Source: a bacterium
GTDB taxonomy: Bacteria > Patescibacteriota > Minisyncoccia > UBA6257 > JAUSGH01
DNA: 64,000 bases
Direction of reading: 5' to 3'
Assembly: GCA_030649055.1 (NCBI GenBank)
Contig: JAUSGH010000002.1
Coordinates: forward strand, 5,357 to 69,356
The position numbers and the translations under genes were made by a program. Below, piece by piece: positions 4,280 through 41,493 of the stretch. How positions within the stretch are numbered: position 1 is the first letter of the stretch; every line of letters starts with the position of its first letter. Under the pieces are notes generated by a model, which saw only the letters and a program-made list of their open reading frames with translations, did not search any database and was not told where the DNA came from.

Positions 4280-4400
4280 GTCCTTCGATCAACTCAGGAA
4301 CTAAAATTTTTATTCCCTGAGCGGAGGCGCTAGCAAGCGCCGTAGTCGAAGGGCTACGATATTCAGAAATTTTATTCCCTGAGCTTGTCGAAGGGCTACT
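4280..4400. repeat. tandem cluster of RPE-like palindromic element arms (one left arm, two right arms, one carrying an internal hairpin insertion)
   Basis: TCCTTCGATCAACTCAGGA...TTATTCCCTGAGC[GGAGGCGCTAGCAAGCGCCGTAG]TCGAAGGGCTAC...TTATTCCCTGAGCTTGTCGAAGGGCTAC, between convergent genes. Confidence 0.75.
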
Positions 4401-4407
4401 ATGAACG

Positions 4408-6765
4408 CTATCCCCTCAGCCGCTTCATAATGTCTTCTTCGATTGCCCGCAAATCCCCTCCGTAACGCTTGCGGGATTGCTCGCGAAGAATATGCAGCGA
4501 ATCCTCTTGGTCCCTGGACGCGCGGATGGTTTGGATGTTAAAGGGAGGCGCTGTCTGCCCGCCAATCAGGAGCTTCGCGTACGCGTTGTAGTTATCAATG
4601 TTGATAAGGTCGCCTTTCGTAAACGTCGGCTCAAACTGCTTCACGAGAAACTCGGCATCCGCCGCTCCCACGCGGAACACGACTAAAGACCCGACGTTGC
4701 CGAACACCGCGTCGCGGATTTTCTCCTGCAGTTGCGCGATAAACTGGTGCGCAACAACGAGGTCTAGGTGATATTTGCGCGCCTCGGAAAGAATGGTGGC
4801 GATGGAATCCGTCGTAAAGTTTTGGAACTCATCAATGTAAAGATAAAAATCGCGCCGCTTCGGCTCCGGCACATCCACGCGCGATAATGATGCCATCAAA
4901 AGCTTCCCCACGATCACCATACCCAAAAGTCCGGCGTTAATGTCGCCGATGCGCCCCTTCGCGAGGTTCACGAGCAAAATTTTCCCTTCGTCCATCACTT
5001 TGCGGAAATTGAACGCCGACTTCCGCTGACCGATAATCGGGCGCACGTAATCGTTCGCGATGAAGTTGTTGAACTTGGAAGTGATATACGGCGTCATGTT
5101 GGCAAGCGACGCTTCGCCGCCGGCTTTCACCGCCTCTTTCTCCCAGAAATCAATTACCGTAGGGTTGTGAATCCGCGCGAGTTTTCGTTTCCGGAACTCC
5201 ACGTCCGTAAAAATACGCGGCACCTCCATCAGCGTTGCCGGTTCGTTCTCCGCGTCTTCCATCAGGAGCAGTAAGGCGTTCCGCATATACTGCTCAAACA
5301 TCGGGCCCATTGTTTCTTGCGAAAAAAGTTTATTGAAAATACCCTGCATTTCATTCACAATAAACGTCTTTTGCTCCGGATAATTCGGGTCATATTCCAG
5401 CATATTTAAGCCCAGCGGATACATCCGGTCGCCCGGGTCAAACACAATCACGTCGTCATAACGCTCCGGCGGAATTGCCGCGAGAATCGCGTCCACCAAA
5501 TCTCCATGCGGATCTATGATTGCCGCGCCTTTCCCGGCGGCGATGTCCGCCCGCACCATATTGACGAGCAGGTTAGATTTACCCGTGCCGGTCTGACCGA
5601 CAACATACACATGCCGCCGCCGATCCTCATCGGTAATATAAATCGGCTTGCGCTCGCCGCGATACAAACTTTCGCCGATAAGCGTGCCACCCTTAGGAAG
5701 CGCCGACGGAGGAGCCGCCTCGCGCGCCTTCACGGCCTTCACGCGCGGAATGTCCGTCGTCGCAATCGGGAAATGAAAAATACTCGCGAGTTCATCGGAG
5801 GAAAGTATCATCGCCTCACTAGAGTCATATTCGCGAAAAATATATTTATAAATGGCCTTGCGCGTGTCACTATATTGTTTCACCTGAAACTCGTTGCGCT
5901 GCGGCGAATAAAACTGCGCGAATGATCCGCTGAGTCCCTCCAATAATTCAGAAGCACGGTATGGCGTCGGCGCCGAAGCAATCAACCGCACATTCACGCT
6001 AAACAAAGGCTTGCTGATTTTTTGATCCAGCGCCTTAATCGCATCCTCGTCAATAATCTTTTGTTCTTTATCCTTTTTTTCTCTGTCCGCTTTGGAAAGC
6101 GGCAATTCAATGCGCGCATGCAACACGTGCTCCAGCTTTTCTCCTTTTTTGAGTTTTGAAATAAAATGCGAGATTTTTGACTTTGTTCCGCGCGGCGCTG
6201 CTGCCACAACAACCTGCAGGGCAATCCCCTCGCCCACCGTGTTCATTTTTGAGAAGTTACTGAGGAGAGGCGCGAACGTGTCCACTTTCGCCTCGGCGTA
6301 CGTGCGCACCGGCAACGCGTAATGCTTTTTGAGTTTCACGTACGCGGCAACCACCTCGCCCTGCGGGTTAAAAATGGTGTAGTCCTCATGCACGGTGTCC
6401 ACCTGCGATTGCGGCCACAGTCCCTGAATTTGCCGAGCGGCAAACTCCGCGTATGGCCGCTCCACCGCGATATAAAACACAATTTCCTCGCCAACATTAT
6501 GCACCGCGATTTCAAATACCGCAGGCGCGTCCGGTTTTACGAGCAACGACAGGAGCTGCGACGTAAGCGCAATTTCGTTCAACGGATCAGCGGTCGTTCC
6601 TTTGTGCTCTTCCGTCGCGCGCACCGGCAACCGCACCAAGAGCAGTCGGCGGTTCAGCGCCTGCGCCAGTCGCTGATGACGCAAATACCGCCGAAGAAAA
6701 TAACCCCCGACTATCGTAGCGCCAACCGCCGCGAATATGATACTGAATGTCAAAGGAGAAACCAT
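4408..6765 (-). CDS. VirD4/TraD/TraG-like (FtsK-HerA superfamily, DUF87-type) membrane-anchored ATPase
   Basis: 785 aa with an N-terminal TM helix. Walker A VYVVGQTGTGKSN followed by IIDPHGDL, Walker B YIDEFQNF, and VVAHQ, as in type IV secretion coupling proteins. Confidence 0.6.
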   Translation of the reverse strand: MVSPLTFSIIFAAVGATIVGGYFLRRYLRHQRLAQALNRRLLLVRLPVRATEEHKGTTADPLNEIALTSQLLSLLVKPDAPAVFEIAVHNVGEEIVFYIAVERPYAEFAARQIQGLWPQSQVDTVHEDYTIFNPQGEVVAAYVKLKKHYALPVRTYAEAKVDTFAPLLSNFSKMNTVGEGIALQVVVAAAPRGTKSKISHFISKLKKGEKLEHVLHARIELPLSKADREKKDKEQKIIDEDAIKALDQKISKPLFSVNVRLIASAPTPYRASELLEGLSGSFAQFYSPQRNEFQVKQYSDTRKAIYKYIFREYDSSEAMILSSDELASIFHFPIATTDIPRVKAVKAREAAPPSALPKGGTLIGESLYRGERKPIYITDEDRRRHVYVVGQTGTGKSNLLVNMVRADIAAGKGAAIIDPHGDLVDAILAAIPPERYDDVIVFDPGDRMYPLGLNMLEYDPNYPEQKTFIVNEMQGIFNKLFSQETMGPMFEQYMRNALLLLMEDAENEPATLMEVPRIFTDVEFRKRKLARIHNPTVIDFWEKEAVKAGGEASLANMTPYITSKFNNFIANDYVRPIIGQRKSAFNFRKVMDEGKILLVNLAKGRIGDINAGLLGMVIVGKLLMASLSRVDVPEPKRRDFYLYIDEFQNFTTDSIATILSEARKYHLDLVVAHQFIAQLQEKIRDAVFGNVGSLVVFRVGAADAEFLVKQFEPTFTKGDLINIDNYNAYAKLLIGGQTAPPFNIQTIRASRDQEDSLHILREQSRKRYGGDLRAIEEDIMKRLRG

Positions 6766-6775
6766 ATATGGTACT

Positions 6776-6806
6776 TATTCCCTGAGCTTGTCGAAGGGAT
6801 ACATTA
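6776..6806. repeat. RPE-like palindromic element, single arm
   Basis: TTATTCCCTGAGCTTGTCGAAGGGATAC. Confidence 0.7.
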
Positions 6807-10487: not shown

Positions 10488-10913
10488 TTATCGCTGCACC
10501 TCCTCTCCCTCCGCGATCATCCGGTCAAGCTCCTCCATCACGTCATCCGGTATCGGAATTGCCTTGCCGGGCTTACTTATCCCCGGATACCTCCACGCGC
10601 TGATGATAGTCATTTTTGGTTTGCATAGCGACACCCGCAGCGCCTCCAGTTTTGCGTCCCCATGCTTTATTGTTTTATTGCTTTGTTGCTTTTTTGCCTC
10701 CTGTACCATCACCCAAATTTCCTCCTTGCGCCTCGGCGTATCATTCCGCTGCATCACCGCCACCGTGTTCGGCGCGACTCCCTCCTCGCGCCGCGTGCCA
10801 TTCTTAATCACGCGCCGAATACGCCCCTCGCCGAGGCCATAGTGGATCATTTTACTTTTCACATGCGACGTCCAATGCGTAGCAGTATCATCTTTTGGAA
10901 ATCGTAGCAACAT
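10488..10913 (-). CDS. hypothetical protein
   Basis: 141-aa ORF with no recognisable motifs. Confidence 0.35.
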   Translation of the reverse strand: MLLRFPKDDTATHWTSHVKSKMIHYGLGEGRIRRVIKNGTRREEGVAPNTVAVMQRNDTPRRKEEIWVMVQEAKKQQSNKTIKHGDAKLEALRVSLCKPKMTIISAWRYPGISKPGKAIPIPDDVMEELDRMIAEGEEVQR

Positions 10914-13186: not shown

Positions 13187-14464
13187 TTAATATTTACGCA
13201 ATCTGGAACGTAGTTCGCGATGGTACTTCACCGCAAACCGGTGTGCTTCGTCGCGGACGCGGATGAGCATATCGCGATTACGCGCGACTGCGGTGTGGAG
13301 TTCGTGCGGATAGAAAAAGTCGTTGCGCTTGCGCTCTGGCCCCTTAGCGATGCCGACAACCGGCACGGGCAGTTTCAACTCCGCAATCACCGCGCGCGCG
13401 GCATTCACCTGCGGCAATCCCCCGTCAATCAAAAGCAAATCAGGCATCGGCCACTCATCGTGCGTAAATCGCCGACGCAGCACTTCCGCAAGCATCCCGA
13501 CATCGTTTGAGCCGATAATTGTTTTAATCCGAAACTTGCGATATTCGTTTTTATCTGGCGCGCCATCGGTGAACACCACCATAGAACCGACCGCCGAAGT
13601 GCCGCTGACGTGCGAAATGTCGTAGCCCTCAACACGATGAAAGTCGTTTTCTCGCGTCGCTTTATCACCCAATACCGCAATGTCGTGAATATGCTGCAAC
13701 GCCGCGATGCGCCGACGGATAACGACGGCTTCCTCAAATTTTAATTCTCGCGACAACACCCGCATCTCGCGCGTCAGATCGCGCAAAATCTTTTGCTTTT
13801 TCCCCTCAAAAAACGCGATAAGCTGCCGGATGATTTTTTTATAATCGCGAGATGTGATGACGCCAGCGCACGTCCCGGGACAAAGGCCGATTTGATAATT
13901 AAAACACGGCTTCAGTTTCGGTTGTCCTTCGATAAACTCAGGAACTAATTTTTTTATTTTATTGCCTGAGCTTGTCGAAGGCGTACCTTTGTTTATCTCG
14001 TGACTACTCCACGGAAAAATCCTGCGCAGAATATGCAACGCCTCACGCAGTGACGCGGCGGAAGTAAACGGCCCGAAGCGGCCAAGCGGCCTATCGTGCG
14101 ACAGCGCCTCGCGCTCACGAAGCAACAACACGCGCGGAAATACCTCGCGGGTAATCACGACATAGAGAAAACTCCGGTCGTCCTTTTCCAGCACATTATA
14201 CTGCGGCTGATACTTCTTAATGAGCCGCGCCTCCAAAATCAGCGCCTCAATGACGGTGTCTGTTTGTTCAACATCAACCCTTGCCACTTCGCTAACCATT
14301 TTTGCAATCCGCAACTCCTGTGGCCTCTGGAAGTATGAGAGTACCCTCCTCTTCAAATTCGCCGCCTTCCCGACATACAGAACCCGCCCGTGCGTGTCCT
14401 TCATAAAGTAAACACCGGGAGTTAACGGAAGTTGTTTTTTTAATTTTTTGATGTCAATAGACAT
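13187..14464 (-). CDS. uvrC: excinuclease ABC subunit C (short form, no C-terminal HhH), with in-frame palindromic-element insertion
   Basis: GIY-YIG N-terminus (LPLTPGVYFMKDTHGRVLYVGKAANLKRRV), UVR-like region and RNase H-like endonuclease domain (GYDISHVSGTSAVGSMV). 425 aa. Residues [23 protein letters not shown] are encoded by repeat element 13924-13988. Confidence 0.9.
   Translation of the reverse strand: MSIDIKKLKKQLPLTPGVYFMKDTHGRVLYVGKAANLKRRVLSYFQRPQELRIAKMVSEVARVDVEQTDTVIEALILEARLIKKYQPQYNVLEKDDRSFLYVVITREVFPRVLLLREREALSHDRPLGRFGPFTSAASLREALHILRRIFPWSSHEINKGTPSTSSGNKIKKLVPEFIEGQPKLKPCFNYQIGLCPGTCAGVITSRDYKKIIRQLIAFFEGKKQKILRDLTREMRVLSRELKFEEAVVIRRRIAALQHIHDIAVLGDKATRENDFHRVEGYDISHVSGTSAVGSMVVFTDGAPDKNEYRKFRIKTIIGSNDVGMLAEVLRRRFTHDEWPMPDLLLIDGGLPQVNAARAVIAELKLPVPVVGIAKGPERKRNDFFYPHELHTAVARNRDMLIRVRDEAHRFAVKYHRELRSRLRKY
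13924..13988. repeat. RPE-like palindromic element (full, both arms) inserted in-frame in uvrC
   Basis: TCCTTCGATAAACTCAGGA...TTATTGCCTGAGCTTGTCGAAGGCGTACC. Confidence 0.8.
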
Positions 14465-16509: not shown

Positions 16510-19125
16510 CTAGCGCAGCACTTTCCTCAAATATTCTCCCGTAAAACTCCCCTTTGCCCTCGCAATAGTTTCCGGAGTGCCGACCGCCACCACCTCCCCT
16601 CCCTTCTCTCCTCCCTCCGGCCCCAAATCAATCACCCAATCCGCGGTTTTGATGACGTCCAGGTTGTGCTCAATAACGACAACCGTGTTGCCGCGATCCA
16701 CGAGCCGATGCAGAATCTTCAAAAGATTTTCAATGTCGGCGAAATGCAATCCCGTTGTCGGCTCATCCAACAAGTACAATGTGCGGCCGGTGTCGCGCTT
16801 CGCGAGTTCCGTAGAAAGTTTGATGCGCTGGGCTTCGCCGCCGGAAAGCGTTGTGGCGCTCTGCCCCAACCGTAAGTATCCCAGCCCCACTTCGTTCACA
16901 ATCTTCAACCGGTCATACACCCACGGAATGTCGCGAAAAAACACCACCGCCTCCTCCACCGTCATCTGCAGAATGTCGTAGATATTTTTGCCTTTGTAGT
17001 CCACCTCCAACGTTTCGCGGTCAAAACGTTTTCCTTTACACACATCGCACTGCACAAACACCGTCGGCAAAAAATGCATTTCAATCGCAATCGTGCCGTT
17101 GCCCTCGCAATGTTCACACCGCCCGCCGGGCACGTTGAAACTAAACCTTCCGACTTTCCACCCCCTTATACGGGCCTCCGCCGTTGAAGCAAAAAGATCG
17201 CGGATATAACTCCACGCGCCGATGTAGGTCGCGGGGTTTGACCGCGGCGTGCGGCCGATTGCTCCCTGGTCAATGGAGATGATGTTATTCAAGTATTCCA
17301 AGCCGAGAATGGCATTCAATGGATGTTTGTAGCCCTTCGACTCCCCGCCCGCTGGCGGTTCGCTCAGGGAATAATGATTAAACTTACGCGAAAGCGTTTT
17401 CTCCAGCACGTCATACACGAGTGTGCTTTTGCCCGAACCGGAAACGCCCGTCACCGCCACAAAACGCCGCAATGGGATGTCCACGTTGATATTTTTTAAG
17501 TTATTCGCCGAGGCGCCGCGGATTTTGAGCATGTCCCTATCAATCATTCGGCGCTTTTGCGGCACCGGAATTTTTTTATCGCCGCGGAGATAATCCACGG
17601 TCAATGACTTGCCCTTCGGCGTTCCTTTGCCGAGCACTTCTTTAAGCGGCCCCGCAACCACGATATTGCCGCCGTGTACTCCGGCAGCAGGGCCGATGTC
17701 CACCAAATAATCCGCCGTACGGATAGTGTCCTCGTCGTGTTCAACAACAATGACGGTATTCCCCAGATCGCGCAGTTGCTTTAAGGTCGCGAGCAGCTTA
17801 TCGTTATCGCGCTGATGCAGACCGATGGTCGGCTCGTCCAAAATATAGAGCGTGCCCACCAGCCGCGATCCGATCTGCGAAGCCAGCCGGATGCGCTGCG
17901 ACTCCCCTCCCGAGAGCGTTCCGGCTCTGCGGTCCAACGTCAGATAATCTAACCCCACATCCAACATAAATTTCAGCCGATTTCTGATTTCTTTAAGCGG
18001 CACTTCCGCGATTTCCGCCGCCGCTTTTTTTACCTTATTACCCAACAGATCAAAAAAATCGTACGCATGGCCCACGGAAAGCCCCGTAAGGTCGGCGATG
18101 TTTTTATTGTTGATGAGCACGTTCAGCGCCTCCGGCTTCAGACGTTTGCCTTTGCATTGCGGACAAATCTCTTCGGACCACACATCCACTACCCCCAAAC
18201 CGTGGCACGCCTCGCAGGCGCCATATGGGCTGTTAAATGAAAAGAGCCGCGGCTCAATTTCCGGAAACGCGAAATTGTCCTTCGGGCATGAAAACTTTGA
18301 GGAGAGCGTGAATTCTTTTTCTCCGATGATAAACGTCGCGACATCGTTGCCGTACTTCAAAGCGCTTTCCACCGCTTCCGCAAGCCGCGCGCGCACGTCT
18401 TTGACGCCGAAGTTTAATCCGGCGGGCATGTGGTCAACAATAAGCTCAATCGTGTGCTGTTTATACCGCGAAAGTTCAATGCGGCTGTGGAGCGACAATA
18501 TTTTCCCGTCAACGCGCACCTCCCCGAAACCGCCGTTCAAAAAGTCATAGAGCAGTTGATAATATTCCCCCTTGCGTCCAATGACCGCCGGAGCGAGCAC
18601 TATAATCTCTTGCTTGGCAGCGGTAGCCCCTCGACTGTGCTCGGGGACTATTTTATCGTTACTCCCTGAGCTTGTCGAAGGGTTACCTTTACTCGCAACT
18701 TCGATGACGGTATCAACAATTTCCTCCGGCGTCATTTTGCGGATTTCGTCTCCGCACGTCGGACAATACGGCTTGCCGATACGGGCAAACAGCACGCGGA
18801 GGTAGTCATAGATTTCCGTGAGCGTCGCGACGGTTGAGCGCGGATTGCCGGAATGGCTTTTCTGGTCAATAGAAATGGCAGGAGAGAGTCCCTCAATTTC
18901 ATCAACGTCCGGCTTATCCATTTTTCCCAAAAACTGCCGCGCGTACGCGGAAAGCGACTCTATGTAGCGCCGCTGACCCTCGGCAAAAATAGTGTCAAAA
19001 GCAAGCGATGACTTCCCCGAACCGGAAAGTCCCGTGAAGACGATTAAACTGTTACGCGGCAGCTCAAGAGAAATATTCTTGAGATTATGCTCGCGGGCGC
19101 CTTTGATAATGATTTTGTCGTTCAT
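16510..19125 (-). CDS. uvrA: excinuclease ABC subunit A with in-frame palindromic-element insertion
   Basis: 871 aa with two ABC ATPase modules ([15 protein letters not shown] and [11 protein letters not shown]), LSGGEAQR signatures and zinc-finger Cys clusters. Residues [23 protein letters not shown] are encoded by element 18625-18688. Confidence 0.95.
18625..18688. repeat. RPE-like palindromic element (full) inserted in-frame in uvrA
   Basis: CCCCTCGACTGTGCTCGGGGA...TTACTCCCTGAGCTTGTCGAAGGGTTACC. Confidence 0.8.
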
Positions 19126-19218: not shown

Positions 19219-21324
19219 TTATTTTTTATCTTTCGTTTTTCGCCTCAACAAGTGTATTTCATCCCTCAATATCGCCGCGAGTTCAAAGTCCAATCGTTTT
19301 GACGCGTCCTTCATCTGTCTCATTTTTTCGGCAATGATGCGGTCAAGCGACCCTTGTTTCATTTTTGTCGCCGCGCCGAGCGCCGAAAATTCCGTTTTCA
19401 ATACTTCGGCGACTTCCTTCTCCCGTTTGACGTCAAACGCCGCGACAATGTCGTGGATTGCTTTGATGATGGTCTTCGGCGTGATGCCATGCGCCTTATT
19501 CCACGCAAGCTGGATATTCCGCCGGCGGTTGGTTTCAGAAATCGCGCGCGTGAGCGACCCGGTCATCACGTCGGCATACAGTACCACCTGGCCGTTCACG
19601 TTGCGCGCCGCGCGGCCGATGGTTTGGATGAGCGAAGTTTCACTCCGCAAAAATCCCTCTTTGTCGGCGTCAAGAATGGCAACGAGCGACACCTCCGGCA
19701 AGTCCAATCCTTCGCGCAACAGGTTCACGCCCACAAGCACGTCATAGTTGCCGCGGCGAAAATCTGAAAGAATCGTGATGCGGTCAATGGTCAGCACGTC
19801 GCTGTGCACATAATTCACCTTGATTTTCAACTCCTGCAAATACGCCGTGAGATCTTCCGCCATTTTTTTGGTGAGCGTGGTCACGAGCGTGCGTTCCTTC
19901 TTCTTCACGCGATCTTTGATGCGGGAAATTAAATCATCTATCTGACTAAGCGGTTGTCCCTCGACATGCTCGGGAACTATTTTATTTTTATTGCCTGAGC
20001 TTGTCGAAGGCCTACCGCCACCACTGACCGGGCGCACAATAATTTCCGGGTCTACCAGTCCCGTCGGCCGAATAATTTGTTCCACGATCTGCCCGCTCGC
20101 CAAGCTGCGTTCCAGTTCATAACCGCTTGGCGTTGCCGAGGTATAGATCGCCTGCGGCATACGCGCCTCAAACTCGGTGAACTTGAGCGGCCGGTTGTCC
20201 GCCGCACTAGGCAGACGAAAACCGAACTCAATAAGCGTTTTCTTTCGCGCCGCATCGCCCTCCGACATTCCGCGAATCTGCGGCACCGTCACGTGGCTTT
20301 CATCAATCACCATCAGGTAATCCGGCGCGCCGTCTTCGGTAACGGGAAAATACGAAAGCAGCGTATCCGGCGGCTCGCCTGCCGCGCGACCCGAAAGATG
20401 CCGAGAATAATTCTCAATGCCGTGGCAGTAGCCGATTTCTTTCATCATCGCCACGTCATAGCGCGTGCGGCGTTCCAACCGCTCCGCCTCCAGCAATTTT
20501 CCGTTTTGCTCAAAATAATGCAACCGCTCGCGGAGCTCCGCTTTAATCACCTTCATCGCGCGCGTTTTTTCCGGTCCCAGCGTGACGAAATGTTTTGCCG
20601 GAAATACATAAACCTCCGGCACTTCCTCGCGGCTACCGAATCCCTTCACAGGATCCACCGCAAAAATATGCGAGATTACGCCATCGTGAATATCAAACCG
20701 ATACAACAGATCCTGATCCGGCGCCATCATTTCCCACTGGTCGCCGCGCACGCGGAATGTGCCACGCGTGAGGTCCGCATTCGTGCGCGAAAACTGCATC
20801 GCGACCAACTTTTTCATAAGCTCCGCGCGCGTCACCGCATCACCCACTTTGAAATGCAGCATCTGTGATTCATACGCCTCCGGCGCGCCCAAGCCGTAAA
20901 TACACGACACCGACGCCACCACAATCACATCGCGTCGCGTGAGTAACGCCGCGGTTGCCGCGTGGCGCAGTTTATCAATCTCGTCGTTAATCATCGCTTC
21001 TTTATCAATGTAGGTGTCCGTCACCGGCAAATACGCCTCCGGCTGGTAGTAGTCATAATAGGACACGAAATAGTGCACAGAATTTTTCGGAAAAAACTCG
21101 CGATACTCGTTGCACAGCTGGGCGGCAAGGGTTTTATTCGGCGCAATGACGAGCGTCGGTTTTTGTACCGCCTGGATGACATTCGCGACGGTAAATGTTT
21201 TGCCGGAACCCGTGACGCCGAGAAGTGTCTGGTGCTTCATACCTTTCTTCAAACCAGAAACAAGCCACTCGATGGCTTTCGGCTGGTCCCCCGCGGGCAT
21301 AAAATTGGATTGCAACTTGAACAT
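19219..21324 (-). CDS. uvrB: excinuclease ABC subunit B with in-frame palindromic-element insertion
   Basis: 701 aa. [10 protein letters not shown] helicase motif I, DESH, beta-hairpin region and C-terminal UVR domain. Residues [22 protein letters not shown] are encoded by element 19955-20017, between the IVRP and QIDDL motifs. Confidence 0.95.
19955..20017. repeat. RPE-like palindromic element (full) inserted in-frame in uvrB
   Basis: TCCCTCGACATGCTCGGGAAC...TTATTGCCTGAGCTTGTCGAAGGCCTACC. Confidence 0.8.
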
Positions 21325-22565: not shown

Positions 22566-23831
22566 CTACGGCACGATGGATACCATGAGTGACCGGTCGG
22601 GAGCGAAGAGTTCTTCAACGCCCGCTACCGCGTCAGCCCATGTCGTTGTTTCGATGACCTTCACTAGTTCTTCTTGCGTCTGTACGCACCCGAAAATCGA
22701 GAGGTCGATGAGCGTCGCAAGCACAAGCCCGGAGAGCTGAACCTGCTTCAACCTCATCCCCAGAAGCAACTCGTCACGCTCCACCTCAAACCACTTGCGC
22801 CCCCGCCGCTTCACGAGCTCGGGAATCTGCTTGAATGCCTCCGCGCATGCCACGAAGTGGTCGGGAGCGGCATCGACGCCGAGCCGGCAGAATCGCAAGT
22901 CGCGGAACGTCTCGATGGTCGGCCGTACGGCGTAGACAATGCCGAGTTTCTCCCGAAGCGTCGCGAAGCACGCGGATGCCGCAACGTTCACGCATAACAT
23001 CGCGCGCTGTTCATGCATGAGCGTGAGCGGTGTCGCGCGCATGCGCAAGACAGAACACTCGCCGGCAGGCTCATCGTCGTTTGAAGGCAGGCCAAGCACG
23101 TCACTCGGACGAACGACATACTGGCCGCACCGGATGGGACTTGCCGCCATCGGAGCAACTATCGTACGCTTCGCGTCTCCGTCGTGCGGAAGCTTTGGGA
23201 ACGCTTCTGCTGCTGCCCGCATCACCTCGGAAAACGTGGTGCTTCCCGCGACAACGAGCGCCATGTTCGGCAACGTGTGATAACGGACGAAGTGATCCTT
23301 GATGGCGCCTGCCGTCCACCGATTGATACCTTCCGATGTTTCAACGCGAAGAACAGGGTGTCCTTCGGGAAACGCCGCGCGCAAGATGGCGCGATGCACC
23401 GGCGTTGTCCGCGGCCCCACTTCGGCAAGTTCACGCTGGTGGATTTCCTGAAGATGAGTGATGGAAAGATGCTTCGGAAACACTCGCGCGTATACCGCGA
23501 GGAATCGCAGCATCTCCCGAAGCCGAAGCGAAACGCCGCGTACCATCCACCACGTACTTTCCGCGCCGGTACTTCCCAAATCTTCCGGAAGAAATCCGCG
23601 CTCGATTGCGTATCGCCGCGCCTTCGACACATCGCCGGAATCGCTACCCGCAATACCCATCGCATGTTCTACCGCGTGCGAAAGACCCGGCATCTCGGGA
23701 GGATCCTGCCGAACCCCGGCGAACATCACGAGACCGGCCGAAACCTGCGGAGGGTCAATGCGCATTGACTTCACAAACACGCGAAGACCATGCTTCGTGA
23801 CACCGCACCGAAACGCAAAGATATCTCTCAT
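22566..23831 (-). CDS. M16-family (pitrilysin/insulinase-like) zinc peptidase
   Basis: HAVEHAMG resembles the inverted zinc motif HxxEH of M16 peptidases. 421 aa. The gene lies in a GC-rich segment. Confidence 0.6.
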   Translation of the reverse strand: MRDIFAFRCGVTKHGLRVFVKSMRIDPPQVSAGLVMFAGVRQDPPEMPGLSHAVEHAMGIAGSDSGDVSKARRYAIERGFLPEDLGSTGAESTWWMVRGVSLRLREMLRFLAVYARVFPKHLSITHLQEIHQRELAEVGPRTTPVHRAILRAAFPEGHPVLRVETSEGINRWTAGAIKDHFVRYHTLPNMALVVAGSTTFSEVMRAAAEAFPKLPHDGDAKRTIVAPMAASPIRCGQYVVRPSDVLGLPSNDDEPAGECSVLRMRATPLTLMHEQRAMLCVNVAASACFATLREKLGIVYAVRPTIETFRDLRFCRLGVDAAPDHFVACAEAFKQIPELVKRRGRKWFEVERDELLLGMRLKQVQLSGLVLATLIDLSIFGCVQTQEELVKVIETTTWADAVAGVEELFAPDRSLMVSIVP

Positions 23832-24730: not shown

Positions 24731-25096
24731 CTACTTCCTGCGCCACCCGCGCCGGTAGACGTTCCGCACCGCGAAGTATCGTGGCGGCGGAGCGTAGAGA
24801 TGGTCACGCACTGTCCTGTTCCACCGATCGGCATCCGCCACCGCCGCTTCCACCGGAAGCGGCACCGGCCATAACGTAACGAGGCAGTTGCGCCGTTCAT
24901 GGTCAAAGAGCGCCAGAACGCCGATGCCCATCGCGGTACGCTGAACTTCCGCTTGGTACCGCTCCGAGTACTCGCCGCGCCACAAAACCGTGTCTGGCCA
25001 CGTGGTCGCGTCCCACTGACCCCACTCCGTATGCGGCCGAACTCCGTCGTTCTCCATCGGGTCCTCCTTACAGCGACTGCGTGCCAAAACGCTCAA
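24731..25096 (-). CDS. hypothetical protein
   Basis: 121-aa ORF in a GC-rich segment. It overlaps the upstream ORF by 29 nt. Confidence 0.3.
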   Translation of the reverse strand: MSVLARSRCKEDPMENDGVRPHTEWGQWDATTWPDTVLWRGEYSERYQAEVQRTAMGIGVLALFDHERRNCLVTLWPVPLPVEAAVADADRWNRTVRDHLYAPPPRYFAVRNVYRRGWRRK

Positions 25097-36197: not shown

Positions 36198-36956
36198 TTA
36201 TGATGAAGGTGAATCCTTTTTATTCGTTGGTAATTGATACGTATCCCGAAACAACATCCACCGCACCCGCACCGCGTCAATCAGCGACTCAATGTAACGA
36301 TGATAATCAAAGCGTCGTGGATTATCATTCGACCAGAAAATGGGAAACTCGTGCGTGCGATACCCCAGCTGGGCTCCCAAGGCAATCACTTCACCTACCC
36401 AGCCGGCAGAGTCAACACGCGTCAGCGGAAATACCCGTTCCGCCGCGCTTTCCGAAAAACAATACCATCCACTTTCCGTGTCCCACACACGAGGGGTCAA
36501 AATCGCCTGCATGAGGAAGTTATGTAGTAGTCTAAACAAACTATCACGGACGCGCAAGAGCGGCCGCACGCGACCACGAGCCACCACGCGCGAACCGACA
36601 GCAATGTCAAACCCGCGCTGAAGATACGGGAATGCTTTATGAAACTCCACCACCGAGGACGAATTTGTGGGATAAAGCACAACACGCCACTTTCCCGAGG
36701 CGGCGCGCATACCCTCGCGCACCGCGGCGCCTAACCCTTTGCGCGTACCCGAGGTAAGCAGACGGATGTTCCCGAGGAGCATCCTGAACCGACGCGCGAT
36801 TTCCGCGGTTGCGTCGGTTGAGGCATCGTCTGCAACGATAATTTCAAACTGCATATTCGCCTGCGTGAGGTGATGGTCAATATCAATGAGCGCCAACGGT
36901 AGCGTCCGGGCGTTATTGAGTGTAGGAATAATGACCGAAATGAACGGCTTTGACAT
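36198..36956 (-). CDS. family 2 glycosyltransferase (DPM1-like)
   Basis: ISVIIPTLNNARTL and ADDASTD (the DxD-type motif of GT-A fold glycosyltransferases). Confidence 0.75.
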   Translation of the reverse strand: MSKPFISVIIPTLNNARTLPLALIDIDHHLTQANMQFEIIVADDASTDATAEIARRFRMLLGNIRLLTSGTRKGLGAAVREGMRAASGKWRVVLYPTNSSSVVEFHKAFPYLQRGFDIAVGSRVVARGRVRPLLRVRDSLFRLLHNFLMQAILTPRVWDTESGWYCFSESAAERVFPLTRVDSAGWVGEVIALGAQLGYRTHEFPIFWSNDNPRRFDYHRYIESLIDAVRVRWMLFRDTYQLPTNKKDSPSS

Positions 36957-36990
36957 ACTTTCAGTATATCACTACAATAAAGGGCGTCAT

Positions 36991-37746
36991 ATGGTAACGC
37001 TAAAATCAAAGGAGGAGGTCGCCATCATGGCGGTTGGCGGCAAAATGTTGGCGGAAGTTATCCGCAACGTTGCCGCGGAGGCGCGTGAAGGCGTGAGTCT
37101 AAAAACATTGGACGCGCTCGCGGAAAAACTCATCCGGCGTGCGGGCGCCTTGCCCGCATTTTTGGGCTACCGACCACACGGTGCCGGCAAGCCATATCCC
37201 GCGACCATCTGCGCCTCGGTAAACGACATTATCGTCCACGGCATTCCCACGCAATACAAATTGCGCTCCGGCGATGTACTAAAGCTTGATTTCGGACTCC
37301 GGCATGAAGGCTTTTGCCTTGACGCGGCCGTCACCGTAGCAATAGGGACAATCACAACCGAAGCATCGCGACTCATTGAAGCGACAAAAAAGGCGTTACT
37401 GCTTGGCATCAAAGCCGCCCAGCCGGGAAAACATTTGGGCGACATCGGTGCCGCAATTGCCACCTACGTACATGGAAAAAAATTCGGCATCGCCGAAGGA
37501 CTGACGGGCCACGGCATCGGCCACGAGCTCCACGAAGACCCGAGCGTGTATAATTTCGGAAAATCCGGCACCGGTTTGGAACTGGTGCCGGGACTTGTCA
37601 TCGCTATTGAACCGATGACAACCGCAGGAAGCGGAAAACTCGTGCAGTTGCCCGACGACAGCTATGCCACCGCGGACAGTTCAATATCCGCGCACTTTGA
37701 ACACACCATCGCGATTACGGAGAAAGGACCGATAATTCTTACATAG
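36991..37746 (+). CDS. map: methionine aminopeptidase type I
   Basis: Pita-bread fold metal ligands (D..D..H..E..E context: GDVLKLDFGLRHEGFCLD, HGIGHELHEDP, EPMT). Start at the ATG at 36991. Confidence 0.9.
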   Translation: MVTLKSKEEVAIMAVGGKMLAEVIRNVAAEAREGVSLKTLDALAEKLIRRAGALPAFLGYRPHGAGKPYPATICASVNDIIVHGIPTQYKLRSGDVLKLDFGLRHEGFCLDAAVTVAIGTITTEASRLIEATKKALLLGIKAAQPGKHLGDIGAAIATYVHGKKFGIAEGLTGHGIGHELHEDPSVYNFGKSGTGLELVPGLVIAIEPMTTAGSGKLVQLPDDSYATADSSISAHFEHTIAITEKGPIILT

Positions 37747-37764
37747 TAAATCCCAAGCACGAAG

Positions 37765-37880
37765 CACTAAATCCTAAACAAATTCAAATAACCAAAATCC
37801 CAAAGAACATGCAGTTCTGCATTTTGAGCATTTGAGTTTTGATACTGTTTAGAATTTAGATATTGGGATTTAGGATTTAT
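37765..37880. terminator. convergent-gene terminator region (map/adk) with nested inverted repeats
   Basis: ATGCAG-TT-CTGCAT followed by TTTTGAGCATTTGAGTTTTG terminates map. The outer inverted repeat AATCCTAAAC...GTTTAGAATT / ATCCCAA...TTGGGAT flanks both genes. Confidence 0.5.
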
Positions 37881-38569
37881 TTTGCCATTCCAAGCTTCTC
37901 TAAGATTGTGGCAAAAACCAAGTACGGCATCGGCTCCCCGTCAATCTCAACAATCTCATAGCCGCGTTCGCGGAGTTTCGCCAAAATCGGCGCGGTGCGC
38001 TGTTCGAATTCTTGCAAACGAACTTTGATAATCTCCGGCGTGTCCAACGTGCGCTTGCGGAACGATCCTCCGCACAACGGACAAATTTTCGGTTGCGCGT
38101 CCGGAAGATACATCACCGGCGTTCCACATACCGAACAAAGCATACGATTGCTGTTGCGATACACCGTCGTTTCCGGCTTAATCTTTAAATAAATGACGTG
38201 GACATTACCGCGGCCATAGAGATCCTCTAAAAGATCAACAAGCCCGCGCTTGCCACCCTCGGCAGTGAACGCTTCAAGTTCGGTACGCGGCGAACCGCTA
38301 AAGACAATCCCCAGGCCGGAGGAATGGATACGCTTTGTTTGCGCGGCGACAATGGAATACGCCCACATCGGGTCGCATAACCGACCGGAATCAAAATTAT
38401 CGCGCTGTTCCTGAATCACCAAGTCGTTGGCATTCGCCGGATCATGCACGGTCATCTCCATAAACTTTCCCGTATCAAAATGAATAAGGCCGAGCTTCGC
38501 GGCCAAAAGATTTGCCTGCGTCCCCTTCCCCGCTCCCGGCGAACCGTAGACGATAAGTGCCCTTTTCAT
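37877..38569 (-). CDS. adk: adenylate kinase (zinc-lid type)
   Basis: LIVYGSPGAGKGTQA P-loop and a lid with CSVCG...CPLCGG. Start at the ATG at 38569. Confidence 0.9.
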   Translation of the reverse strand: MKRALIVYGSPGAGKGTQANLLAAKLGLIHFDTGKFMEMTVHDPANANDLVIQEQRDNFDSGRLCDPMWAYSIVAAQTKRIHSSGLGIVFSGSPRTELEAFTAEGGKRGLVDLLEDLYGRGNVHVIYLKIKPETTVYRNSNRMLCSVCGTPVMYLPDAQPKICPLCGGSFRKRTLDTPEIIKVRLQEFEQRTAPILAKLRERGYEIVEIDGEPMPYLVFATILEKLGMAK

Positions 38570-38640
38570 ACCGTTATTATAAAAGCAAGAAAGCAAGAAA
38601 GCAAGAAATAGAAACGCCGGTCGCCTCCAGGCGACCGGCG

Positions 38641-39375
38641 CTAGCGCGATACACGCTCCCGAAGGAACGTAGGGTCAGCGGTAGCGGTGATGCAGTCCAT
38701 CACCTGCGCCGCTCCCTCCGTGGTTTTCAGGAATTCCAGCACGGGCGTTTTTGTTTCCGGCAAGTTCCCGCGAATGAATTGCCAAACCCACGGATGACGA
38801 CCCGCGAGTATCCAATTCAGCCGAATCGCGTCAATGCATTCGCGGATCCGCCGAAACTGTTCCGCGAACTGCAGCGACGAAATGCGGCTGTGCGTGAGCC
38901 ACTGCGCAACCGTGTTCTTGTCCAATCCGTCCCCGATAATGAGGGCGAATTCCGTGGCGCGAAGCGACGTCTTGCCGTCCAGCGTCAAATCGCGGCACAG
39001 CCCGCGAACGAGCTCGCCCCATGCTGACCAGACAACACGCCGGCTTGGCACATAAAACGCGAATCCCCCATTCCCGAGTTTGGTCATCGCTCCCAAGCCA
39101 AGCACGCCGATATCGGTGATGTCTCGGTATGGGATGGCGCGTCCGCCGAACGATGCCGTTGCGTTGTCCTCTGGCGACACTGCGTTCGCCGCGCGTCGGA
39201 ACGCGCGCCAAAGCATCCGCGCCGAACGCTTATCCATAAGCTCCCGAAAAACCGGCTCATTACGCGTTGAAACATCAACGAGCAAGAGTTCATCGGGAGG
39301 CGTAGCGAGAAGCGCCGCGTCAGATGCGTCAAGCACCGCGACCGCGTAGACGCTCAAGTCAAAAATCCTAGCCAT
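38641..39375 (-). CDS. hypothetical protein (GC-rich islet)
   Basis: 244-aa ORF with no recognisable motifs. Higher GC than the surrounding ribosomal genes. Confidence 0.4.
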   Translation of the reverse strand: MARIFDLSVYAVAVLDASDAALLATPPDELLLVDVSTRNEPVFRELMDKRSARMLWRAFRRAANAVSPEDNATASFGGRAIPYRDITDIGVLGLGAMTKLGNGGFAFYVPSRRVVWSAWGELVRGLCRDLTLDGKTSLRATEFALIIGDGLDKNTVAQWLTHSRISSLQFAEQFRRIRECIDAIRLNWILAGRHPWVWQFIRGNLPETKTPVLEFLKTTEGAAQVMDCITATADPTFLRERVSR

Positions 39376-39397
39376 TGCGTTACTCCCGATAGAAAAA

Positions 39398-39425
39398 GTA
39401 GTTCCTGAGTTTATCGAAGGACTAC
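39398..39425. repeat. RPE-like palindromic element, single arm
   Basis: GTAGTTCCTGAGTTTATCGAAGGACTAC. Confidence 0.65.
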
Positions 39426-39517
39426 ATTAGAATACTTTTTTTAGCATAACAAAATAAAAAATAAAATGAAAACACCGATCGCCCTAAGGCGATCGGTGTT
39501 GAACTTTTGAGATACGC

Positions 39518-39925
39518 TTACGCGAGAATCCGCAGAACACGCTCGGCGCCGCGTGCGGTGCGCAGCAATTCCATCGGACGCCGCCTACCGAAGTGCCGCG
39601 AACGGTCATTGAAAAAGAAGTAGCACATGCCACCCTCCTTGGTGCGGGAAGCCGCATCCAGGCACTCACGCAAGCGCTGCAGCAGAACCTGTGTCTGTCG
39701 GTCGGGAATCTGACACCCCGTGCGCCAGCGATCCACCTCCAGCCCGAACGTCACGATGCAGGTGCGATTGCTCGGCCGGAGCAGATACGCAAGTCCGTTG
39801 GGGCTAAGCAACAGCCGCCTTGAGGGTGAGAGGTCTCGCATGAGCTGCCGGACGAACGCGCTCCAGAGCGCGGCCTGCCGACGGAAAGTCTCCCGCTCCA
39901 CCGTTTTCCGTGCCCATGTCGTCAT
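39518..39925 (-). CDS. hypothetical protein (GC-rich islet)
   Basis: 135-aa ORF flanked by oppositely oriented palindromic-element arms at 39398-39425 and 40034-40057. Confidence 0.35.
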   Translation of the reverse strand: MTTWARKTVERETFRRQAALWSAFVRQLMRDLSPSRRLLLSPNGLAYLLRPSNRTCIVTFGLEVDRWRTGCQIPDRQTQVLLQRLRECLDAASRTKEGGMCYFFFNDRSRHFGRRRPMELLRTARGAERVLRILA

Positions 39926-40033
39926 TGCGCGTCTCCCTTTCTACAACGAGAATTCCTCATACCTACACTGCCCACACTATAGCAATACCGCAGGCAAAAA
40001 TCAATGAGATAAGAGGCGCAAACAAATACATAA

Positions 40034-40057
40034 CCCTTCGACAAGCTCAGGGAATAA
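40034..40057. repeat. RPE-like palindromic element, single arm (opposite orientation)
   Basis: CCCTTCGACAAGCTCAGGGAATAA. Confidence 0.65.
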
Positions 40058-40105
40058 AACGCAAAGGTTGAAAGATATAAATATAAAACTAAAGACAAAG
40101 AAGAA

Positions 40106-40213
40106 CGGCTCGCTTTCGAAATGAAATGAGTGCTAGAAGCCACGACAAAGCTGTACCCACAGGGGTACTGCGAGGAGGGGCGACAACGCAATCGCTCATT
40201 TCGAAAGCGAGCC
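40106..40213 (-). terminator. large stem-loop immediately 3' of secY (19-bp stem, ~70-nt loop with inner hairpin), followed by a U-rich tract on the minus strand
   Basis: CGGCTCGCTTTCGAAATGA...TCATTTCGAAAGCGAGCC, with the inner hairpin GTACCCACAGGGGTAC. Confidence 0.45.
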
Positions 40214-40218
40214 CCAAA

Positions 40219-41493
40219 CTACTCCATCCCTTCGTACTCACGCATCGTAAGCTGCGCCTCCAACTGCTGCATCGTCTCCAGCGCCACAGAAACAACGATT
40301 AAGAGTGCCGTGCCTCCGATGGTCAAGGTCGCGATGCCAGTGATGCTTTGCGTGATAATCGGCAAAACCGCAATCAATCCCAAAAACATTGCGCCAAACA
40401 ACGTCACGCGGTTCACGAGCTTGCTCAAGAAATCGCCGGATGGCTCCCCCGGCCGGATGCCCGGAATAAATCCCCCGCTCCGCTGCAAATTTTTCGCGAT
40501 TTCTTTCGGATCAAACGTGACCGCGGTGTAAAAGTACGTAAACACGACGACCAACACAAAATAGGAAATGCCGTAAATGAGCTGGTTATTCAGCAATCCG
40601 GCCACAAGGTCGTTCAAACGCACCGAAAGATCGGTTGAGACCACGGAAACGATCTGCGCCAAAAATTGCGGAAAAAGCAAAATGGAGATCGCGAAGATAA
40701 TCGGAATAACACCCGCCTGATTGACGCGCAACGGCAAATAACTCATAGATCCGCCGTACACCTTATTGCCGCGAACCCGCTTGGAATATGCTACGGGAAC
40801 TTTACGCTCTCCCTGATTCACAAACACAACACCGGCGATGACAATAATACTCATCACGACAAATGCGATATAAGTCGGAAGCATCGCGACGTCATAAGAC
40901 AACACCGCTGTCCGGACAGCTTGCGGCAGGGCGCTGACAATACCCGCGAAAATGATAAGCGAAGTACCGTTGCCTATTTTTTTCTCCGTAATCAACTCGC
41001 CGATCCAGACAAGAATCATCGTGCCCGTCATGATGATGATGACGTTGCGCATGATTTCAAAAACATCCAACGCCGGAAGTACGCCCTGACTGCGCAGCAA
41101 ATTCAGAAACCCATACGCCTGGAGTCCGGCAAGCGGCACCGTAATGTAACGGGAAATACGGTTGAACTTCGCCCGACCCTGTGCCCCTTCTTCGTAATAG
41201 ATCACTTTCAAGTTCGGGAAAATCATGGTCAAAAGCTGCATGATGATAGTCGCCGTGATATACGGGCCAACGCCAAGCATCATGATAGAAAGATTGGAAA
41301 GCGTGCCACCGGAGAATACGTTCAAAAAGCCCAACAACTGATTGGAACCCAAAAACTCCCGGAGACGCACCGCGTCAATGCCCGGAATCGGAATGGCGGC
41401 AAAAATACGAAACACCACGAGCAAAAACGCGATGCTTAAAATCTTGTTTCGGATATCGGGAATTTTTAACGCCGCTGCGAGTTTTGCAAACAT
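40219..41493 (-). CDS. secY: preprotein translocase subunit SecY
   Basis: 424 aa with 10 TM helices and conserved SecY segments (GIMPFI-like GIDAV, the LxGGTxxNLS plug region, GGFIPGIRPG). Confidence 0.95.
   Translation of the reverse strand: MFAKLAAALKIPDIRNKILSIAFLLVVFRIFAAIPIPGIDAVRLREFLGSNQLLGFLNVFSGGTLSNLSIMMLGVGPYITATIIMQLLTMIFPNLKVIYYEEGAQGRAKFNRISRYITVPLAGLQAYGFLNLLRSQGVLPALDVFEIMRNVIIIMTGTMILVWIGELITEKKIGNGTSLIIFAGIVSALPQAVRTAVLSYDVAMLPTYIAFVVMSIIVIAGVVFVNQGERKVPVAYSKRVRGNKVYGGSMSYLPLRVNQAGVIPIIFAISILLFPQFLAQIVSVVSTDLSVRLNDLVAGLLNNQLIYGISYFVLVVVFTYFYTAVTFDPKEIAKNLQRSGGFIPGIRPGEPSGDFLSKLVNRVTLFGAMFLGLIAVLPIITQSITGIATLTIGGTALLIVVSVALETMQQLEAQLTMREYEGME

Follow-up and report, generated by a model that had tools for sequence, protein, structure and literature searches.

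The junction between secY and adk in a 64,000-nucleotide stretch of contig JAUSGH010000002.1, from an uncultured bacterium of ultra-small size that belongs to the Patescibacteria (hereafter the window, the coordinates of which are used throughout), is occupied by two open reading frames (ORFs), ORF1 and ORF2, which appear to be tandem paralogs distantly related to the Xre/DUF2384 antitoxins. The gene order on the minus strand is rplO, secY, ORF2, ORF1, adk, and map lies on the plus strand, converging on adk. The secY–adk spacing is 1.65 kb and holds the two ORFs, two single arms of a palindromic repeat and a 107-nt hairpin. An earlier note on this DNA had described secY, adk, the two ORFs, the arms and the large stem, and all of these features were found at the positions it gave. 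The four genes central to the argument are as follows.

40219–41493, minus strand: secY (Pfam SecY, E 5e-100), the final gene in the ribosomal-protein (spc-type) cluster that lies upstream of the islet.
39518–39925, minus strand: ORF2, 135 aa, a predicted stand-alone Xre/DUF2384 (MbcA/ParS/NatR-type) antitoxin-like protein.
38641–39375, minus strand: ORF1, 244 aa, a predicted, lineage-specific N-terminal alpha/beta domain (about residues 1–112) followed by an Xre/DUF2384-like module (about residues 113–244).
37877–38569, minus strand: adk (Pfam ADK, E 1.5e-12), adenylate kinase with a zinc-ribbon lid.

The Pfam family PF09722, formerly DUF2384, is the C-terminal toxin-binding domain of the Xre, MbcA and ParS antitoxins. 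ORF2 carries a match to this domain at residues 104–134 (E 1.1e-5; 25.8 bits against a cut-off of 24.5 bits), and in the NCBI annotation ORF2 is a DUF2384 protein of 107 aa; we favour the 135-aa start because homology begins at W21. ORF1 itself has no Pfam match, and its C-terminal 115–130 residues align with ORF2 (BLASTP E 8e-6). The view that both ORFs are without recognisable homology was therefore mistaken, since ORF2 matches PF09722 and ORF1 is linked to ORF2 through paralogy. Both ORFs also align with a 290-aa paralog (E 8e-23 for ORF1 and 6e-5 for ORF2) encoded at L001, the closest related locus found (Candidatus Harrisonbacteria, GCA_016186785; SecY 89% and Adk 84% aa identity). PF09722 is matched by four of the nine family modules, with ORF2 giving the best score in the family, and the ORF1 homologs P0002 and P0003 show weak matches (E 0.01–0.05). 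ORF2 is also the most divergent family member, at 25–32% identity.

The family is small. An exhaustive hidden Markov model search of 1.84 billion representatives returned five proteins, of which four are real, and only about five homolog clusters of ORF1 occur among those representatives. The candidate P0009 was rejected as a spurious repetitive sequence. Protein P0008 (277 aa), the counterpart of the 290-aa gene of L001, is a paralog over the full length and has in addition a transmembrane helix and a coiled coil at its N-terminus. No ortholog of ORF2 was found among 5.8 billion clusters, in which it is a singleton, and a homology search with a profile of the C-terminal module, aimed at mainstream DUF2384 proteins, returned only the family itself.

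Structure prediction adds to this picture with limited precision. The AlphaFold2 models of the two proteins are of low confidence (predicted local distance difference test scores of 58 and 64), because the alignments hold only four to five sequences. In Foldseek searches against the PDB, the top five matches of ORF1 are the NatR (8qnq, 8qnl) and P. putida Xre (9r35, 6gw6) antitoxins, with E values of 0.03–1.1 that are not significant alone, and NatR and Xre are again ranked first for ORF2, with non-significant E values of at least 1. Sequence and profile searches of the PDB with the family gave no significant match. None of the Pfam helix-turn-helix (HTH) models matched ORF1, ORF2 or the family modules; a profile search gave a marginal match (E 1.3) with the HTH of a regulator of the Rgg type. 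The N-terminal region of ORF1, of about 112 residues, is predicted to mix strands with one long helix, and this domain had no known relatives in the searches made. Each of these lines of evidence is marginal, and together the sequence matches and the models agree in suggesting that ORF1 and ORF2 belong to a divergent Xre/DUF2384-type family.

Known type II toxin–antitoxin (TA) systems of the RES-Xre (DUF2384) type include ParST of Sphingobium, MbcTA of M. tuberculosis, NatRT of P. aeruginosa and Xre-RES of P. putida. The C-terminus of the RES-Xre antitoxin is described as obstructing the toxin's active site (PMC7758455). ORF2 resembles the antitoxins of these systems in its size (107–135 aa) and in its C-terminal PF09722 domain, and the resemblance extends to ORF1, whose C-terminal half is homologous to ORF2, with the models of both proteins matching NatR and Xre first. 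The locus differs from RES-Xre systems in several respects. No gene for a RES toxin (PF08808) lies beside ORF1 or ORF2, and ORF1 has no RES match in Pfam, NCBIfam or PADLOC. A co-transcribed adjacent toxin is likewise missing from the locus, where ORF2 and ORF1 are separated by a terminator with a 13-bp stem and do not form an operon. ORF1 has an extra N-terminal domain, the paralog of one relative is membrane-anchored, and the sequence similarity of the pair to the known family is marginal. Searches of PADLOC, PHROGs and NCBIfam, and tblastn against plasmids and phages, gave no useful match for either ORF. Orphan (solo) antitoxins and Xre-family regulators offer a second comparison. Like them, the islet presents an antitoxin-like gene that has a promoter-like site and a terminator to itself and lacks an adjacent cognate toxin; unlike them, ORF1 and ORF2 form a tandem duplicate limited to a handful of Harrisonbacteria-like genomes of the Candidate Phyla Radiation (CPR), the family keeps a conserved position beside adk, and DNA binding is here putative.

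The transcription signals within the islet are the following.

39976–40004, minus strand: ORF2 promoter-like site, TTGATT, 17 nt, TG-n-TATAGT, with an extended −10 (nine of 12 matches in a consensus scan; a consensus match only).
39471–39500, minus strand: intrinsic terminator after ORF2, a 13-bp stem and a T-run, the latter conserved in a five-locus alignment.
39443–39451, minus strand: putative ORF1 promoter, the conserved extended −10-like motif TGTTATGCT.
38613–38642, minus strand: intrinsic terminator after ORF1, a 13-bp stem with 10 G–C pairs, and a T-run.

The ribosome-binding site (RBS) of ORF2 is GGGAG, in an RBS and start context that resembles that of ORF1. The motif TGnTAT(G/T/C)(C/A)T is kept upstream of the ORF1 homologs in the window, L001, L002, L004 and L005, and these five loci share a layout in which the T-run of the preceding gene's terminator is followed by the extended −10-like motif and an RBS. 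The islet thus looks like two monocistronic units rather than an operon, the promoters being assigned from sequence only.

The arrangement is shared with related genomes, at least on the adk side. The order in L001 is secY, a long palindrome, the 290-aa paralog, an ORF1 homolog (75% aa identity) and adk; an equally similar ORF1 homolog adjoins adk in L002 and L003. A more distant homolog (46% identity) directly precedes adk in L004, where the gene upstream of it ends in ...KGTKQVMDHI..., the DUF2384-like motif of the family. When the window was compared with L001 by blastn, DNA homology was broken only across 39396–40218, the segment that contains ORF2, and the ORF1 promoter region is still alignable between the two with MAFFT. 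The dN/dS ratio of ORF1 against L001 is 0.26 (0.07–0.13 for secY, adk and map), a value that marks ORF1 as a genuine gene under purifying selection. It follows that the insertion is not recent as a whole, contrary to the earlier note: ORF1 lies before adk in L001–L004, in a conserved terminator, promoter and RBS context, and only the ORF2 segment differs from close relatives. For that segment the note's reading is supported, in that the closest relative found offers no matching DNA. The note had also reasoned that its reading would fail if the same two genes were conserved at this position across the lineage with host-like composition. Such conservation is found for ORF1. For the upstream gene the answer is divided: the slot next to secY always holds a paralog of the family, but not an ortholog, being filled by the 135-aa ORF2 here and by the 290-aa membrane-anchored paralog in L001.

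Base composition gives a similarly qualified result. The GC content is 0.596 for ORF1 (+1.8 standard deviations) and 0.632 for ORF2 (+2.8 standard deviations), set against 0.527 ± 0.038 for the 67 long ORFs of the window. The description of the islet as distinctly GC-richer holds in that its GC content is higher, but the excess is modest and other genes of the window equal it (24731–25096 at 0.639; 22566–23831 at 0.596). GC at the first and second codon positions (GC1 and GC2) is raised as well as at the third (GC3; 0.75 in ORF2), and part of the excess is explained by proteins rich in Arg and Ala.

To place the junction in context, 50 secY loci from GTDB species representatives were surveyed. 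In about 19 of these, secY and adk are 5–65 nt apart (14 Patescibacteria and five outgroups from outside the CPR), and three more have gaps of 110–169 nt. Gaps of 0.3–2.2 kb occur at 17 loci and contain mutually unrelated genes, mostly without Pfam matches; gap genes of the other relatives were tested for membership of the ORF1/ORF2 family and do not belong to it. Some of the surveyed loci have no adk nearby. The 1.6 kb of extra DNA to which the earlier note drew attention is accordingly lineage-specific, with many relatives keeping a tight junction of 5–65 nt. On this sequence comparison, the islet is an insertion relative to an ancestral tight junction and a lineage-conserved one, and the junction is a general hot spot in the clade. 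It resembles islets at conserved operon junctions in that unrelated lineage-specific genes occupy the same secY–adk junction of different relatives, and differs from them in lacking an integrase, a tRNA or direct-repeat boundaries and in holding mostly orphan genes rather than recognised cargo. Membrane proteins of about 190 aa that have no Pfam match fill the slot in three other loci, either singly or as two paralogs (L024 5766–7026, L040 1314–2517 and L019 1871–2428). The window is therefore not alone in having tandemly duplicated orphan genes at this junction.

Two single arms of the palindromic element flank ORF2.

40035–40057, plus strand: type B single copy, CCTTCGACAAGCTCAGGGAATAA, an exact match to the 17-mer.
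39398–39425, minus strand: type A single copy, GTAGTCCTTCGATAAACTCAGGAACTAC, with two mismatches, inside the ORF1 5′ leader.

Over 22 nt (39399–39420 and 40035–40056) the two arms show 82% complementarity, but they represent two subtypes, A and B. The 17-mer family to which they belong, similar to CCTTCGACAAGCTCAGG, has 15 copies in the window with up to three mismatches, against 0.09 expected, and these copies occur both as face-to-face pairs and singly, in the two subtypes; further single arms lie at 6781, 7334, 18665, 19196 and 59893. Both the window and L004 carry the type A arm at one and the same site; L001, L002 and L005 lack it. The arm coincides with an 18-nt gap in the MAFFT alignment, and the leader of the window exceeds that of L001 by about 24 nt. 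In the alignment, the arm on the ORF1 side reads as a short independent indel within a conserved 5′ leader, and not as a cassette boundary. No transposase, integrase or tRNA was found in the islet, and no second copy of the ORF2 cassette was found among 5.8 billion clusters or in the metagenome loci that bear the element. The suggestion that the palindromic elements mobilised the islet is not supported by these comparisons, given arms of different subtypes, the lack of a transposase and of a second cassette copy, and a type A arm shared with L004.

The element also inserts on its own throughout the genome. It is found in frame inside uvrC (13926–13981), uvrA (18665–18681) and uvrB (19958–20010), with Pfam domains on both sides, so that the arms beside ORF2 can be explained without gene mobilisation. 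In frame, the element (core CCTTCGACAAGCTCAGG) encodes ...PSTSSGN...VPE(F/H)(I/V)EG..., and in a comparison of UvrB with solved PDB UvrB proteins, residues 436–459 form a clean 24-residue insertion that none of the solved structures contains. Rickettsia palindromic elements (RPEs) are small self-inserting elements that occur in frame in coding genes and are not carriers of neighbouring genes. The element of the window is like RPEs, and like repetitive extragenic palindromic (REP) and miniature inverted-repeat transposable element-like repeats, in being short, palindromic and multi-copy, and in occurring both between genes and as tolerated in-frame inserts in conserved genes. It differs from RPEs in belonging to a different sequence family and a different phylum (CPR), in the frequency of half-elements, and in the presence of its exact 23-mer in many metagenome contigs (at least 120, mostly from groundwater). 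Literature keyword searches found no description of such palindromic elements for the CPR.

The remaining component of the islet lies next to secY.

40107–40213, minus strand: long hairpin directly 3′ of the stop codon of secY and with a U-rich stretch after it.

The large stem structure reported at this position is confirmed, with perfect 18-nt arms (40107–40124 and 40196–40213, 100% complementary) and a minimum free energy of −55.2 kcal/mol (z −5.7). The possibility that it is a copy of a repeat was rejected, the arms being unique in the window. The equivalent position in L001 has an almost perfect palindrome about 190 nt long (z −9.5 to −11.5), and hairpins of 100–190 nt, with z down to −9.5, occur in the first 200 nt after secY in L001, L006, L008, L011, L015, L019, L023, L036, L042 and L045. 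These hairpins show no sequence conservation, and the junctions are interrupted in the loci that have them. Rfam gave no family at the gathering threshold, only terminator-like sub-threshold matches. The structure is probably an operon-end terminator or an mRNA-stabilising structure. A long stem-loop closes the ribosomal-protein operon where adk no longer directly follows secY, a feature that is not peculiar to this insertion.

Taken together, the evidence favours, with reasonable but not high probability, a model where the islet is a tandem pair of independently transcribed, toxin-less Xre/DUF2384-like paralogs, ORF1 having been inherited with adk and the arms being independent insertions. 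The family module would adopt a divergent Xre/DUF2384 fold like that of NatR, ParS, MbcA and P. putida Xre, with a helical HTH-like part followed by PF09722; ORF2 would be the bare module, and ORF1 the module placed behind a family-specific N-terminal alpha/beta domain. The secY–adk junction in the Paceibacteria/Harrisonbacteria clade would repeatedly accept lineage-specific orphan genes, such that ORF1 could have travelled with adk while the secY-proximal slot was filled by different family members in each lineage. The proteins may act as stand-alone Xre-like regulators or as partner-binding orphan antitoxins, the HTH-like part contacting DNA and the DUF2384 part a protein partner. Candidate partners are the N-terminal domain of ORF1 itself, or a RES-type toxin targeting nicotinamide adenine dinucleotide (NAD) that is encoded elsewhere or delivered from outside. 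The flanking arms would be independent insertions of a small RPE-like element, and the long hairpin the 3′-end structure of the secY transcript. We assign no function to the pair, which is lineage-specific and which we regard as a duplicated, domain-extended, toxin-less relative of the RES-type antitoxins confined to a few CPR genomes.

Several observations weigh against this model. The PF09722 match is short (31 residues) and barely exceeds its threshold, and ORF1 has no match to Pfam at all. Confidence is low in both structure models, the Foldseek E values run from 0.03 to above 1, and no Pfam HTH model matches either protein. A membrane-anchored paralog (P0008 and the 290-aa protein of L001) is a poor fit to a classical DNA-binding regulator. 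No RES toxin was found, in a search that covered the 64-kb window only. The conservation argument depends on few contigs, some of them very short, and the 40% homolog of L005 sits in a different genomic context. Lastly, the dS of ORF1 (0.64, window 38641–39375 against L001 5388–6122) is about half that of its neighbours secY, adk and map (1.06–1.42), and the ORF1 protein is less conserved than the flanking proteins despite this lower dS. Later exchange between lineages, or GC and codon constraints, could account for the low value.

The same low dS also counts for a rival explanation, in which the islet is a recently acquired pair of genes, mobilised as a small composite element by its flanking arms, and this explanation can also draw on the missing counterpart of 39396–40218 in the closest relative, on the singleton status of ORF2 and its GC content, the highest in the neighbourhood, on the opposite orientation of the arms around it, and on three assemblies that break just upstream of the ORF1 homolog. 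We nevertheless consider it very unlikely: four other loci also have ORF1 ahead of adk with its promoter and terminator context kept, the two arms differ in subtype and reach only 82% complementarity, single arms are frequent in other parts of the window, the arm on the ORF1 side is a separate small indel shared with L004, and neither a transposase, integrase or tRNA nor another copy of the cassette was found. To be equally doubted is a novel type II TA pair in which ORF2 is the antitoxin and ORF1 either a new toxin, its N-terminal domain replacing RES, or a fused single-chain TA protein. The gene order, with the antitoxin-like gene first and the larger gene second, is that of Xre-RES loci, the N-terminal domain of ORF1 is without known relatives, and the family evolves fast and is patchy, traits often seen in TA and defence genes; but a strong intrinsic terminator and a separate conserved promoter stand between the genes, the N-terminal domain, at about 112 aa, does not reach the length of RES domains and contains no catalytic-looking residues shared by the ORF1 family and P0008/L001-290, PADLOC gives no match, and ORF1 persists with different upstream partners, with no partner gene seen upstream in L005. 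Both explanations are much less likely than stand-alone regulators or orphan antitoxins.

An unlikely alternative of a different kind would treat ORF2 as what is left, in decay, of a full-length upstream paralog resembling the 290-aa gene of L001, leaving ORF1 as the only functional gene. In its favour, ORF2 consists of the C-terminal module only, is the most divergent family member and lacks orthologs. A decaying gene is hard to reconcile with an intact frame, an RBS, a promoter-like site and a clean terminator, with the best PF09722 score in the family and with a GC3 typical of coding sequence, and no remnants of the N-terminal domain were found upstream of ORF2. Also improbable, in our judgement, is a more novel reading, in which the ORF1 family constitutes a new single-chain or split conflict module, with an N-terminal effector or sensor checked by the built-in DUF2384 module and with ORF2 or the membrane-anchored paralog, separately expressed, as a second neutraliser, or else in which the toxin-less antitoxins provide immunity against RES-type NAD-depleting toxins delivered by the host or by competitors of these episymbionts.

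The region shows that the secY–adk junction, which is highly conserved in bacteria generally, is in one CPR clade a site where orphan genes repeatedly land or are retained; in this lineage, under the preferred model of stand-alone, toxin-less paralogs, it would hold a duplicated toxin-less relative of the RES/Xre antitoxins. If the proteins are orphan antitoxins or immunity factors, the finding would bear on the ways in which episymbionts with reduced genomes withstand NAD-targeting toxins; if they are no more than regulators, it is an ordinary one. The palindromic element, which occurs in many groundwater CPR contigs and in frame in essential repair genes in the manner of the Rickettsia RPEs, may be of wider interest than the islet, and the in-frame element is arguably more notable than the gene pair.

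Further copies of the element illustrate its variability. It also lies inside conserved protein-coding genes in L113, L087, L090, L095, L115 and L119–L122. A compound copy at 4282–4394, between convergent genes, consists of one forward arm followed by two reverse arms, one of which has an internal GC-rich hairpin between its CCTGAGC and GTCGAAGG boxes, like the variable insert in many metagenome copies. The idea that the element acts as a sigma-70 promoter (TCGACA/GAATAA) was dropped, the spacings not fitting.

The adk side of the junction shows features of its own. In the window, L001, L002, L006, L045 and L046, the map gene (36886–37746 in the window) runs opposite to secY and adk, and it is co-directional with them (secY-adk-map) in all other relatives; every inverted-map locus in which secY is visible has a gapped secY–adk junction (the L002 contig does not reach secY). 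A palindromic region of about 130 nt (37748–37880) between the convergent 3′ ends of adk and map matches the L001 intergenic region 10609–10736 in both orientations; it probably represents a shared repeat of bidirectional terminator type and differs from the CCTTCGAC element. One more signal lies at the other end of adk.

38576–38608, minus strand: putative adk promoter, TTGCTT (38599–38604), 17 nt, TATAAT (38576–38581), with 6 nt to the ATG.

This promoter-like site is partly built from three tandem 8-nt repeats at 38582–38608, which read AAAGCAAG on the plus strand and CTTGCTTT in the direction of the gene. The arrangement, which is similar in L001 (about 6160–6207), suggests that the adk mRNA may be leaderless and that the 8-nt repeats are a possible operator.

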